A stretch of DNA of 64,000 nucleotides from Escherichia coli (GTDB lineage: Bacteria > Pseudomonadota > Gammaproteobacteria > Enterobacterales > Enterobacteriaceae), in the NCBI RefSeq assembly GCF_024700885.2, contig NZ_CP117016.1; one strand, given 5' to 3'. Every line of letters starts with the position of its first letter. The stretch's first letter is position 1. Below are positions 62,090-64,000 of the stretch, piece after piece. Made by a program: the position numbers and the translations under genes. The notes below the pieces were generated by a model, which was not told the origin of the DNA, made no database searches, and was given only the letters and a program-made list of their open reading frames with translations.

Positions 62090-62935
62090 ATGTCCACGAC
62101 ATGGTTTGTAGGAGCCGACTGGCTCGCCGAACATATTGATGACCCGGAAATTCAGATTATCGATGCCCGCATGGCGTCGCCTGGACAGGAAGATCGTAAC
62201 GTTGCTCAGGAGTATCTGAATGGACATATTCCCGGCGCAGTGTTTTTTGATATAGAAGCGCTTTCTGATCACACTTCCCCGCTTCCGCACATGCTGCCGC
62301 GCCCGGAAACGTTCGCCGTGGCGATGCGTGAATTAGGCGTTAACCAGGACAAGCACCTGATTGTCTATGACGAAGGTAATCTTTTCTCAGCCCCACGAGC
62401 ATGGTGGATGCTGCGCACCTTTGGTGTAGAGAAAGTGTCGATTCTGGGTGGTGGACTTGCAGGCTGGCAGCGCGATGATCTGCTGTTAGAAGAAGGTGCA
62501 GTAGAGCTGCCGGAAGGAGAGTTTAACGCCACGTTTAATCCTGAAGCCGTGGTGAAAGTCACCGATGTGTTATTGGCAAGCCATGAAAATACGGCGCAAA
62601 TTATTGATGCCCGCCCGGCTGCACGTTTTAACGCAGAAGTTGATGAACCTCGCCCAGGTTTACGTCGCGGACATATTCCCGGTGCATTGAACGTTCCGTG
62701 GACGGAACTGGTGCGCGAAGGCGAACTAAAAACGACCGATGAACTGGATGCTATATTTTTTGGTCGCGGCGTCAGCTATGACAAACCGATTATCGTCAGC
62801 TGCGGCTCTGGTGTAACGGCAGCCGTGGTTTTGTTGGCACTCGCGACGCTGGATGTGCCAAACGTGAAAATGTACGACGGCGCATGGAGTGAATGGGGCG
62901 CACGGGCAGATTTACCGGTTGAGCCAGTGAAATAA
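62090..62935 (+). CDS. sseA: 3-mercaptopyruvate sulfurtransferase
   Basis: Tandem rhodanese domains, active-site CGSGVTA; start at MSTTWFVGADW (281 aa). Confidence 0.9.
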   Translation: MSTTWFVGADWLAEHIDDPEIQIIDARMASPGQEDRNVAQEYLNGHIPGAVFFDIEALSDHTSPLPHMLPRPETFAVAMRELGVNQDKHLIVYDEGNLFSAPRAWWMLRTFGVEKVSILGGGLAGWQRDDLLLEEGAVELPEGEFNATFNPEAVVKVTDVLLASHENTAQIIDARPAARFNAEVDEPRPGLRRGHIPGALNVPWTELVREGELKTTDELDAIFFGRGVSYDKPIIVSCGSGVTAAVVLLALATLDVPNVKMYDGAWSEWGARADLPVEPVK

Positions 62936-62954
62936 GCTTTTTACAGGCAATAAA

Positions 62955-62982
62955 AAACCGCCGAATTTGGCGGTTTTTTATT
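62955..62982 (+). terminator. rho-independent terminator after sseA
   Basis: ACCGCC-gaattt-GGCGGT followed by T-run. Confidence 0.6.
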
Positions 62983-63694
62983 GTGCACAGAAAACCCCCA
63001 GCTAGGCTGGGGGTTCCGGAAAGCTTTCAGCTTTGAGCCAGTTATTAAAACCCCTTTTGATTTGTTAAAACACCTTGCGGTCTGGCAACTGCAAGTGTCA
63101 AACAAGAAATCAAAAGGGGGTCCCAATGGGGGACGAAAAGAGCTTAGCGTACACCCGCTGGAACTGTAAATATCACATAGTTTTTGCGCCGAAATACCGA
63201 AGACTGGCGTTTTACGGAGAGAAGCGTAGGGCGATAGGCAGTATTTTGAGAAAGCTGTGTGAGTGGAAAAGCGTACGGATTCTGGAAGCAGAGTGCTGCG
63301 CAGATCATATCCATATGCTTGTGGAAATCCCACCCAAAATGAGCGTATCCGGCGTTATGGGATATCTGAAAGGGAAAAGCAGTCTGATGCTTTACGAGCA
63401 GTTTGGGGATTTGAAATTCAAATACAGAAACAGGGAGTTCTGGTGCCGAGGGTACTATGTCGATACGGTGGGTAAGAACACGGCGAAGATACAGGACTAC
63501 ATAAAGCACCAGCTTGAAGAGGATAAAATGGGGGAGCAGTTATCGATTCCATATCCGGGCAGCCCGTTTACGGGCCGTAAGTAACGAAGTTGAATGCAAA
63601 TGTCAGATCGTATGCGCCTGTTAGGGCGCGGCTGGTAACAGAGCCTTACAGGCGCATTTGAAAAACCTCCGGCTATGCCGGAGGATATTTATTT
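62983..63694 (+). mobile_element. IS200 insertion sequence (boundaries approximate)
   Basis: Left-end hairpin AAACCCCCAGC/GCTGGGGGTT, tnpA ORF, right-end hairpin CCTCCGGC/GCCGGAGG; ~710 bp. Confidence 0.7.
63126..63584 (+). CDS. tnpA: IS200 transposase TnpA (Y1 HUH family)
   Basis: MGDEKSLAYTRWNCKYHIVFAPKYRR and HIHMLVEIPPK motifs, ~152 aa. Confidence 0.9.
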   Translation: MGDEKSLAYTRWNCKYHIVFAPKYRRLAFYGEKRRAIGSILRKLCEWKSVRILEAECCADHIHMLVEIPPKMSVSGVMGYLKGKSSLMLYEQFGDLKFKYRNREFWCRGYYVDTVGKNTAKIQDYIKHQLEEDKMGEQLSIPYPGSPFTGRK

Positions 63695-63726
63695 GCTGGT
63701 CTGGTTCGCGGCCTTTCCAGCAGGTT
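63695..63726. repeat. 32-bp repeat GCTGGTCTGGTTCGCGGCCTTTCCAGCAGGTT (copy 1)
   Basis: 31/32 identical to 63962-63993; both preceded by a hairpin. Confidence 0.6.
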
Positions 63727-63961
63727 GTATTACTGCAAGTGTATCTCGTCTACTCAATACTCGCTTTATGCATCAACGATGTCAAGTAGATAAAAAAGGA
63801 TAGATTTTGAATTCATTTGGCTTATCAGTCCGAATTCAGACAAATATAAACAAATCCCGCTTAATATTAAAATATACTAACTGGTAAAAGATATTACTTA
63901 AACGTGTAATTTCACTTTCTTTAAACAACAAAAAACCGCCAAAATCAGGCGGTTTTTTGTT

Positions 63962-63993
63962 GCTGGTTTGGTTCGCGGCCTTTCCAGCAGGTT
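63962..63993. repeat. 32-bp repeat (copy 2), preceded by hairpin AACCGCC-aaaatca-GGCGGTT
   Basis: Second copy of the hairpin plus 32-bp unit; window ends shortly after. Confidence 0.6.
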
Positions 63994-64000
63994 CACTTGT

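Follow-up and report, generated by a model that had tools for sequence, protein, structure and literature searches.

The DNA downstream of sseA in the 64,000-nucleotide stretch of Escherichia coli sequence analysed here (the window) carries a terminator-like hairpin followed by a 32-bp word, and this unit stands there twice, once intact and once interrupted by IS200. What is the unit, how did IS200 come to lie in it, and what would the insertion do? A first-pass annotation had described the duplicated arrangement and left open whether the unit is a REP-like element, a small RNA or a promoter. Our main reading, to which we give a probability of about 0.8, is that the unit is the 3′ part of the small RNA gene timR, that IS200 at the usual site of its clade splits timR-1 from its terminator, and that the predicted outcome is a chimeric TimR and a near-neutral insertion. 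The features of the locus are collected in Table 1.

Table 1. Features of the sseA-timR region. Positions are those of the window; L001 is the locus of strain 1190 (window coordinate = L001 + 59799).
Feature	Position	Strand	Sequence or basis
sseA (3-mercaptopyruvate sulfurtransferase)	62090..62935	+	RefSeq annotation of the identical strain 1190 locus and ORF
Hairpin 1, predicted bidirectional intrinsic terminator, perfectly symmetrical	62948..62983		CAATAAAAAACCGCC GAATTT GGCGGTTTTTTATTG
IS200, 712 bp	62983..63694	+	Empty-site alignments; no target duplication
IS200 left end (LE) and tnpA 5′UTR (Rfam STnc490, art200 region)	62993..63116	+	RF01405, full length, 146.4 bits (gathering score 56)
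IS200 LE hairpin	62993-63015		AACCCCCAGC-TAG-GCTGGGGGTT
tnpA, 152-aa Y1 (HUH) transposase	63126..63584	+	Pfam PF01797 Y1_Tnp and RefSeq annotation
IS200 right end (RE)	63661..63694		Hairpin CCTCCGGC-TAT-GCCGGAGG (63666-63684) and tail ATATTTATTT
Predicted chimeric timR-1 transcript, 90 nt	63661..63750	-	Start site (TSS) from K-12 timR homology and promoter spacing
32-bp unit, copy 1: conserved internal stem-loop (scaffold) of TimR-1	63695..63726	-	Word GCTGGTCTGGTTCGCGGCCTTTCCAGCAGGTT
TimR-1 seed	63734..63750	-	Plus-strand word TGCAAGTGTATCTCGTC
Putative timR-1 promoter	63757..63785	-	-35 TTGACA (63785-63780), 17-nt spacer, -10 GAGTAT (63762-63757), TSS 63750
IS128 RNA region (Rfam RF00125)	63794..63972	+	165.5 bits (gathering score 80)
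Hairpin 2, predicted bidirectional terminator	63927..63961		AACAAAAAACCGCC AAAATCA GGCGGTTTTTTGTT; -20.6 kcal/mol
timR-2, cut by the window end	63962..64000	-	32-bp scaffold (63962-63993) and start of body
timR-2 seed, type A	L001 4216-4232, beyond the window	-	...GCAGGTGCCTCACAGC; no match to the strain's own timP 5′UTR

The two copies of the 32-bp word were confirmed; they differ by one mismatch, and each adjoins a terminator hairpin. The sseA stop codon (62933-62935) precedes the start of hairpin 1 by 13 nt; the hairpin is a palindrome with 15-nt arms, a GC core at 62958-62973 and a T-run at 62974-62979, with a folding energy of -18.7 kcal/mol. IS200, which the first-pass annotation had placed a few base pairs 3′ of the hairpin, lies 9 nt after its GC stem, directly 3′ of TTTTTTATT and between the timR-1 scaffold and terminator. 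A comparison with E. coli lacking the element, set beforehand, found the predicted junction: the IS-free strains O158:H23 CFIAFB20140388 and 042 and the closest siblings, LR-28 and MS 21-1, read GGCGGTTTTTTATTGCTGGTCTGGTTCGCGG, which is the window minus exactly 712 bp, and the empty site of K-12 has the identical junction except for one SNP. Joining the IS200 flanks thus does restore an intact unit, as had been proposed.

The boundaries of the element are ambiguous by 1 nt (a G), with 62984-63695 equally possible, and its ends (LE start GTGC(A/C)CAG, RE end ...ATATTTATT(T)) agree with those of 40 Yersinia IS1541 ends. The termini, GTGCACAG... and ...ATATTTATTT, are not inverted repeats, and both ends have subterminal hairpins. 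With a single-domain Y1 TnpA (Y1_Tnp at E=1.1e-36 over profile positions 2-121 of 121), an art200/STnc490 5′UTR, no terminal inverted repeats and no target-site duplication, this copy belongs to the IS200 group. Its top strand lies on the strand of negative GC skew, that is, the leading-strand template, whereas IS608 and ISDra2 show the opposite, lagging-template bias. IS200 occupies this site in only 30 of 5,426 complete E. coli genomes, which form one lineage with isolates from humans, poultry, dog and water.

Is the unit one member of a dispersed family? The 32-bp word has only two copies in the 64 kb, even with up to three mismatches allowed (none in 100 dinucleotide shuffles), and across 5,425 E. 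coli genomes it occurs at one to three places per genome, always at the sseA-sseB locus and never on a plasmid in the same survey. A dispersed REP/BIME-like palindrome, recognised by IS200 or by a RAYT-like activity, would share with our unit its palindromic form and intergenic position, but such an element should not be confined to one chromosomal locus, and the hairpins beside other IS200 copies differ from this one in sequence. The genome-wide search for further copies was the annotation's own proposal, and by that standard its REP-like option is ruled out; we give this reading next to no chance.

Tandem architecture with two units is present in about 2,190 genomes, roughly 40% of those of E. 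coli. The repeat extends further than had been noticed, and it is found in IS-free genomes too: in K-12, the tandem unit measures about 322-326 bp, with 64 nt at 84% and 91 nt at 90% identity. Since IS-free genomes carry both copies, the repeat was not created by IS200, and a long target duplication made by the element is ruled out.

What stood of the first-pass annotation's three options was the small RNA. Taken together, annotation in K-12, published work and seed complementarity identify the hairpin plus 32-bp unit, at the level of sequence, as the 3′ part of timR (ryfB), a minus-strand gene whose sRNA is the antitoxin in the timP/ryfA type I toxin system. In the K-12 RefSeq annotation, timR (b4811) covers the homologous hairpin, the 32 bp and about 40 nt more on the minus strand. 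Two papers on this system (PMC7667032; PMC5333039) describe timR as a divergently transcribed small RNA, roughly 100 nt long, that pairs through some 18 nt at its 5′ end with the timP/ryfA 5′UTR and ends in an intrinsic terminator. The same arrangement of toxin and sRNA is found here, with timP between sseA and sseB and a divergent sRNA whose 5′ end matches the timP 5′UTR; timP itself lies just beyond the window end and is annotated downstream in the sequence-identical locus of strain 1190. A search of Rfam for a TimR/STnc2070 family found nothing on the minus strand of the window (E<=1), nor in K-12 at the gathering score.

Could the unit instead work on the plus strand, so that the 32 bp would not belong to a minus-strand gene? 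Copy 1 would then close the sseA mRNA and copy 2 the IS128 sRNA, or the unit would be the promoter of a downstream RNA. The IS128 RNA region lies between both timR copies, its model match extends 11 nt beyond hairpin 2, into the 32-bp word, and both hairpins have T-runs on the plus strand too. However, an RNA that ends at such a terminator would not hold 32 conserved nucleotides past the T-run, and the seed beside the 32 bp co-varies with the timP 5′UTR only if read on the minus strand. The K-12 annotation and Shigella RNA-seq, which detected divergent transcripts of about 100 nt at the locus (PMC5333039), also argue against it, and we regard this reading as very improbable. The two strands can share the hairpins: hairpin 1 is, as judged from its sequence, the terminator of sseA on the plus strand and the native terminator of timR-1 on the minus strand, the latter role being based on the K-12 timR annotation, which spans the homologous hairpin, and hairpin 2 is predicted to end IS128 RNA on the plus strand and timR-2 on the minus strand. 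Compared with K-12, where the IS128 family scores 261 bits (Rfam), the window has lost about 30 nt of the 5′ part of the model, including the ryfA-like promoter and start. The ryfA and IS128 families of Rfam are both matched in K-12, the ryfA family in K-12 only, and overexpression of IS128 RNA gave no phenotype (PMC4606813).

If the unit is the 3′ part of timR, which copy would serve timP? We compared seeds by the longest contiguous word shared with the timP 5′UTR; full-length RNAduplex was uninformative, giving long artificial duplexes for every pair. The TimR-1 seed is complementary at 17 of 17 nt to a site in the timP 5′UTR (L001 4375-4391, window-equivalent 64174-64190). This site ends 64 nt before the timP ATG and agrees with the TimR site described in PMC7667032, which is given there as more than 60 nt upstream of the RBS. 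Longest words for timR-1 and timR-2 are 17 and 5 nt in the window strain and LR-28, and 5 and 17 nt in O158:H23 and 042. K-12 has 7+8 nt around one G.U pair for timR-1 and 6 nt for timR-2, and O157:H7, with a single timR copy, has 16 nt. Over these six strains, the distance from site to ATG is always 63-64 nt, seed and target co-vary, and the scaffold is kept between copies and strains while the 5′ seeds differ. In the window strain, only timR-1, the copy hit by IS200, has a seed that matches the timP 5′UTR. A target for the orphan TimR copies was sought within the IS128 region and none was found, the longest words there being 5-7 nt.

Two points about the insertion had escaped the first-pass annotation, namely that the body of the gene and its terminator now stand on opposite sides of the element, and that the copy hit is the one with the toxin-matching seed.

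Why does IS200 lie exactly here? In the textbook mechanism of the IS200/IS605 family, the left end reads a short target sequence, a tetranucleotide in IS608, and not a target hairpin. The first-pass annotation had invoked hairpin-directed targeting instead, and a survey of IS200-group copies across many taxa, with each distinct left flank counted once, gave it empirical support: a strict hairpin plus T-run abuts LE in 97 of 118 flanks against 14 of 432 control 50-mers, so that 82% of left flanks are terminator-like versus 3% of controls. In 70 of 88 cases, 6-10 nt separate the final G:C pair from the element (here 9 nt), and T dominates flank positions -7 to -1 except -3 (TTTNTT), resembling the RE tail TTTATT. 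Right flanks, inspected by eye, have no such hairpin structure, and the flanking hairpins are all different in sequence and do not form one repeat family. Odaert and colleagues reportedly noted, in 1998, a terminator-like hairpin before IS1541 at 8 of 14 sites in Y. pestis. IS200 at hairpin 1 occupies the usual landing site of its clade, a fairly ordinary event.

The association could in part mean survival of harmless insertions. In its full form, this explanation holds that the only real target is a T-rich pentanucleotide and that the hairpins are a matter of survivorship. It accords with ISDra2, which inserts 3′ of a specific pentanucleotide, with the prevalence of T at positions -7 to -1, and with a preprint in which terminator-like sequences are enriched upstream of IS200/IS605 elements and the enrichment is read as a niche limiting transposase expression. 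However, it leaves the tight hairpin spacing, the restriction of hairpins to the LE side and the size of the difference from controls to be explained, and hairpin-less T-runs are abundant in intergenic DNA. Survivorship as the whole explanation thus appears unlikely to us. The target structure resembles the right end of IS200 itself, a hairpin followed by ATATTTATT, which suggests mimicry of RE. We tentatively propose that IS200-group transposases may recognise terminators as single-stranded DNA mimics of their own RE (a GC hairpin followed by some 9 nt rich in T, TTTNTT). Both ends of the element being terminator-like in both directions, insertion would swap in an equivalent terminator for transcripts that come from either side and keep the length of TimR-1. 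If this is true, the element would be transcriptionally invisible, which could explain how a near-dormant insertion sequence persists at tens of copies.

What would timR-1 produce after the insertion? Its native terminator, present in the empty-site siblings, is displaced by 712 bp, and the candidate replacement is the RE hairpin with U5. The putative timR-1 promoter scores below the threshold of a consensus scan, and its start site, 7 nt past the -10, reproduces the TTGACA-N17-GAGTAT-N6-TSS geometry of K-12 timR. Transcription from there should enter the right end of the element by 10 nt, meet the RE hairpin and U5, and stop. The minus strand reads UUUUUC (63665-63660) after this hairpin, which the consensus scan marks as terminator-like in either direction; it has 8 bp (7 GC) and a core of -14.8 kcal/mol against -8.5 kcal/mol for the native core, with 5 U and then C against 6 U in the native terminator. 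The product would be a chimeric TimR-1 consisting of the seed, the scaffold, 10 nt of IS200 tail, the RE hairpin and U5, which folds with the same architecture as the native 87-nt TimR-1 of LR-28 and would have the same seed-scaffold-terminator order. Since the native layout would be kept, the insertion is probably near-neutral for antitoxin function, and sseA should retain its own terminator, hairpin 1.

A contrary outcome is that IS200 inactivates the cognate antitoxin, with TimR-1 unstable, mis-terminated or deprived of chaperone binding and timP derepressed, possibly under selection, since TimP may have a non-toxic membrane function. Hfq and ProQ often need the terminator and its U-tail to bind an sRNA, and TimR could therefore still suffer from a chimeric 3′ end. 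The gene body is cut off from its native terminator, timR-1 is the sole copy with a matching seed, and an insertion sequence lies in timR-1 in 33 of the 38 genomes at least 99% identical to the window allele, including an independent IS1 in the -35 of the timR-1 promoter in three related genomes. Loss of timR is tolerated in Salmonella, where the deletion is described as raising TimP (PMC7667032). However, the 33 genomes fall into clonal groups and stand for only two insertion events, the site needs no selection given that IS200 lands at terminators everywhere, and a strong hairpin with U5 lies 10 nt from the junction, near the native distance. We consider inactivation possible but doubtful, and prefer the chimeric, near-neutral TimR-1. 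Read-through past RE would give an RNA of about 770-800 nt antisense to tnpA, ending at the LE hairpin, which has been described as a bidirectional terminator (PMC4513863), or at hairpin 1.

An anonymous repeat has thus become a concrete, testable case of a mobile element apparently replacing the terminator of a type I antitoxin sRNA, for which intact sibling alleles are natural controls. Moreover, timR of E. coli exists in two paralogous forms that keep one scaffold and have exchangeable seeds, and either the proximal or the distal copy may match timP; anyone who annotates or knocks out “timR” in E. coli should bear this in mind, also in the pathogenic strains used for work on ryfA and timR. 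An APEC RyfA/TimR paper and a 2026 NAR paper on timP make no mention of two timR copies, of IS200 or of terminators at the timPR locus. The survey of 118 flanks provides a clean quantitative statement of terminator targeting by the IS200 group. What is new is an allele of known things, with related observations in the prior literature, and current understanding is not overturned.

Among known systems, REP/BIME sequences and the insertion sequences that target them share with this locus the use of palindromic intergenic DNA as a landing site. REP/BIME elements have tens to hundreds of dispersed copies, whereas the present unit is confined to a single locus, and the flanks of IS200-group copies are unrelated terminator hairpins rather than one repeated family. 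Closer in function are zorO-orzO and zorP-orzP, shoB-ohsC and tisB-istR, in which, as in timR, the antitoxin does not overlap its target in antisense and pairs in trans through a short 5′ seed. Tandem-paralogue type I pairs offer a precedent for tandem duplication that leads to seed-specific pairs, as compared in PMC7667032 and PMC5333039; unlike these, most two-unit E. coli loci have one orphan antitoxin, without a matching toxin mRNA in the locus.

With timPR as its principal descriptions present it (Andresen et al. 2020, PMC7667032; Fris et al. 2017, PMC5333039), the locus shares its place between sseA and sseB, a divergent sRNA gene of about 90-100 nt, 5′ pairing over 16-18 nt, in the empty-site siblings an intrinsic terminator, and a variable region of ryfA that overlaps the pairing site. 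Expression of TimR, repression of TimP and toxicity of overexpressed TimP are reported there for the Salmonella and Shigella homologues. The window differs in having two timR paralogues for one timP, compared with two full ryfB-ryfA pairs in S. dysenteriae and one pair in Salmonella; here the distal of the two copies is the cognate one, with an IS200 end apparently in place of its terminator, and its seed variant (variable region TGTAT) is absent from the four variants of Fris et al. (PMC5333039).

With IS200/IS1541, finally, the element shares a Y1 transposase encoded by a single ORF, a length of about 710 bp (712 bp here versus 707 bp stated for Salmonella IS200, PMC4513863), subterminal hairpins at LE and RE, the STnc490/art200 5′UTR, the lack of target duplication and an insertion just after a hairpin resembling a rho-independent terminator. 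It differs in that its top strand lies on the leading-strand template, and in that it struck a bidirectional terminator, that of an sRNA gene encoded on the opposite strand, whose 3′ end the IS right end would become.

The element downstream of sseA is a bona fide IS200: its tnpA encodes a full-length Y1_Tnp protein (E=1e-36), its 5'UTR scores 146 bits against Rfam STnc490, and both ends carry subterminal hairpins. It occupies this site in 30 of 5,426 complete E. coli genomes. Using a junction query built so that no IS-bearing genome could match it unbroken, and then fetching the IS-free loci, we found the empty site GGCGGTTTTTTATTGCTGGTCTGGTTCGCGG in O158:H23 CFIAFB20140388, 042, LR-28 and MS 21-1, the last two being the nearest relatives over the whole intergenic allele; the K-12 empty site differs from it by one SNP. 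The first-pass annotation had proposed that joining the IS200 flanks recreates an intact unit, and comparison with the IS-free loci confirms this, since taking exactly 712 bp out of the window gives the empty-site sequence, and no target is duplicated. A single G could belong to either IS200 end; the tabulated boundaries are favored by 40 Yersinia IS1541 right ends and a tandem IS1541 junction in L080, a contig from our IS200 left-end scan.

The interrupted unit, a hairpin followed by a 32-bp word, is present twice in the layout that the same annotation had described (table). The word is found at these two places only in the 64 kb window with up to three mismatches allowed, and nowhere in 100 shuffles of the window at the same tolerance. 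A genome-wide search returned one to three units in each of 5,425 genomes and none on plasmids, ruling out a REP-like element, one of the options previously left open alongside a small RNA or a promoter. The small RNA option stands. K-12 RefSeq places timR (b4811) on the minus strand across the homologous hairpin, the 32 bp and ~40 further nt (1857-1956 of the K-12 locus, L002), with ryfA/timP ~400 bp downstream on the plus strand; in the identical locus of strain 1190, timP is annotated just past the window end. Salmonella TimR is divergently encoded, an 18-nt stretch of its 5' region pairs with the timP 5'UTR >60 nt upstream of the RBS, and intrinsic terminators follow such complementary sequences in all enterobacteria examined (Andresen et al., PMC7667032); in later timP papers the TimR site falls within stem-loop SL2 of the 5'UTR. 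In S. dysenteriae, ~100-nt divergent RyfB transcripts lie upstream of each ryfA copy, their complementarity overlapping the variable region of ryfA (Fris et al., PMC5333039). The K-12 annotation and these papers therefore identify the unit, read on the minus strand, as the conserved internal stem-loop (32 bp) of the antitoxin RNA TimR plus its terminator.

Features of the sseA-timP region (window positions unless a locus is named)
Feature	Position	Details	Basis
sseA 3' end	62935		sequence
Hairpin 1	62948-62983	perfectly symmetrical palindrome CAATAAAAAACCGCC-GAATTT-GGCGGTTTTTTATTG, follows sseA	sequence
IS200	62983-63694	favored boundaries	IS1541 comparison
tnpA	63126-63584		
32-bp word, copy 1	63695-63726	GCTGGTCTGGTTCGCGGCCTTTCCAGCAGGTT, after IS200	sequence
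TimR scaffold loop	63703-63711	minus strand, GGAAAGGCC	
timR-1 seed match	63734-63750	TGCAAGTGTATCTCGTC	
Putative timR-1 TSS	63750		
IS1 in timR-1 promoter -35 hexamer	L128 (E. coli SCU-172, NZ_CP054353.1) ~1290-2070; window-equivalent 63776-63784	9-bp target duplication AACGATGTC	
IS128 RNA region	63794-63972		Rfam
Hairpin 2	63927-63961	precedes second 32-bp copy	sequence
32-bp word, copy 2	63962-63993	one mismatch vs copy 1	sequence
timP mRNA 5' end	L001 (strain 1190 locus) ~4312-4321	GGCCCTTTCC	
Seed sites	L001 4216-4232 and 4375-4391	equivalents in L002, L003, L004	
Single timR-timP unit, deleted terminator hairpin	L125 (O157:H7 PV15-279) 1285-1335		

By RNA folding, every timR copy has three parts: 5' seed, scaffold stem-loop and terminator. 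Both hairpins are bidirectional, hairpin 1 also being the sseA terminator and hairpin 2 the end of the Rfam IS128 RNA, which occupies the space between the timR copies. The IS128 region here lacks ~30 nt of K-12, among them a ryfA-like -10 element and the start of its transcript; should K-12 IS128 expression use that promoter, the window strain probably does not express it.

The two-unit architecture is present in ~2,190 genomes, and others, such as O157:H7, have a single timR-timP unit. The K-12 tandem repeat (~322-326 bp) runs from timR through the divergent promoter region into ryfA, of which it takes in the first ~17 nt; its copies have diverged in the seed segment only. Because TimR lies on the minus strand, complementarity to timP mRNA shows as a shared plus-strand word, and for each timR body we measured the longest such word it has in common with the timP 5'UTR. 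In the window strain and LR-28 it is 17 nt for timR-1 (the sseA-proximal copy, split by IS200) and 5 nt for timR-2 (the second copy, running past the window end); in O158:H23 and 042 it is 5 nt for timR-1 and 17 nt (GCAAGCGCGTCTCAGCG) for timR-2. K-12 has 7+8 nt around one G.U for timR-1, consistent with the position of b4811, and 6 nt for timR-2, and O157:H7 has 16 nt for its single copy and no timR-2. In every case the pairing site stops 63-64 nt short of the timP ATG, and seed and target co-vary among strains, supporting TimR-timP pairing. Judged from these matches, the cognate paralogue can be distal in some strains and proximal in others, leaving the remaining copy an orphan, for which the IS128 region offered no target either. 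In the window, the only plausible antitoxin for timP is the IS200-hit timR-1.

At least four seed types occur among timR paralogues: A (GCAGGTG..TCACAGC), B (TGCAAGTGTATCTCGTC), C (GCAAGCGCGTCTCAGCG) and an O157 type (CAGGCACCCCACAGTG). Which of them accompanies which timP 5'UTR allele varies from strain to strain, a pattern that looks like recombinational shuffling. The conserved TimR scaffold loop is itself nearly complementary to the ryfA/timP transcript at its extreme 5' end (9 bp and a single bulged C), perhaps as a second contact or as a remnant of the duplication. In O157:H7 PV15-279, the single unit lacks the IS128 region and keeps its 16-nt match; its sseA/timR terminator hairpin is deleted (GCTTTTT joined to ATTGCTGG), so neither gene there has an obvious intrinsic terminator.

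A putative timR-1 promoter, TTGACA-N17-GAGTAT, has the same geometry as that upstream of K-12 timR and would now drive transcription of seed and scaffold into the IS200 right end. Ten nt into IS200, the transcript would reach CCUCCGGC-AUA-GCCGGAGG and then UUUUUC. A terminator scan flags the right-end hairpin on the minus strand, the core of that hairpin exceeds the native one in stability (-14.8 vs -8.5 kcal/mol), and the predicted chimeric TimR-1 (90 nt) folds like the native 87-nt RNA of LR-28. With so stable a terminator and a near-native length and fold, the insertion is probably near-neutral for timR-1. That the changed 3' end instead cripples the antitoxin and derepresses TimP seems rather unlikely: a second, independent hit, IS1 in the timR-1 promoter of three related genomes with the same timR/timP allele and no IS200, lends it a little weight, but the IS200 and IS1 hits are only two events, each in a clonal group. 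Near-neutrality is the reading we prefer. As for sseA, it retains its own terminator, beyond which the IS200 left-end hairpin, described as a bidirectional terminator (PMC4513863), would add a second stop ahead of tnpA.

IS200 lies on the plus strand directly 3' of TTTTTTATT, 9 nt past the last hairpin G:C pair, in agreement with the earlier proposal of insertion a few bp 3' of the hairpin. We sought the IS200 left-end hairpin in one genome per species, and the matches listed gave 118 unique left flanks, from Yersinia pestis, Vibrio, Brenneria, Mailhella, Oxalobacter, a Bacillota MAG and others. A strict hairpin (>=5 bp, >=3 G:C) with a T-run abutting the IS is present in 97 of these 118 listed flanks vs 14 of 432 control 50-mers from positions 400-1000 nt away, and most remaining left flanks have imperfect hairpins; the hairpin-directed targeting invoked by the first-pass annotation is thus empirically sound. 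Among the same listed matches, 70 of 88 scorable flanks have their last G:C pair at a distance of 6-10 nt to the IS, positions -7 to -1 are mostly T with -3 variable, and right flanks inspected by eye show no comparable hairpin structure. At its own right end IS200 has a hairpin and then ATATTTATT(T); the terminator-like target therefore resembles that right end, both being a hairpin with a T-rich tail, which suggests target recognition via right-end mimicry. Hairpin-directed targeting of IS200 is already known in outline. Odaert and colleagues reportedly saw terminator-like stem-loops at 8 of 14 IS1541 sites in 1998. A 2026 preprint describes strong enrichment for terminator-like stretches upstream of IS200/IS605 elements.

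GC skew of the window plus strand is negative throughout, placing the IS200 top strand (tnpA sense) on the leading-strand template. IS608 and ISDra2 are biased towards the lagging-strand template, and the orientation here is opposite and does not fit. The exact 21-nt left-end hairpin CCCCAGCTAGGCTGGGGGTTC turns up across very distant taxa, where the hairpin-to-flank sequence differs: among the matches listed (L005-L124), in Yersinia, Vibrio, Mailhella, Desulfovibrio, Oxalobacter, and Bacillota, Peptococcaceae, Elusimicrobiaceae and Saccharibacteria MAGs, many of these contigs ending within the element. Elsewhere, positions 1-8000 have a G+C of 0.43 vs 0.49-0.53 over the rest of the window and may be horizontally acquired.

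The searchable timPR papers hold no mention that we found of a two-paralogue timR arrangement, and the ryfA variable region of the window, TGTAT, is absent from the list of four variants given by Fris et al. (2017). New or unreported in searchable papers are the allele with IS200 between the cognate antitoxin body and its terminator, where the IS200 right end is the likely replacement terminator; the two-paralogue, swappable-seed organization of E. coli timR with orphans; and a quantitative flank survey suggesting right-end mimicry. The components themselves all belong to known types: the insertion is an IS200-group element sitting at a terminator, and the locus hit is the timPR/ryfAB type I toxin-antitoxin system.
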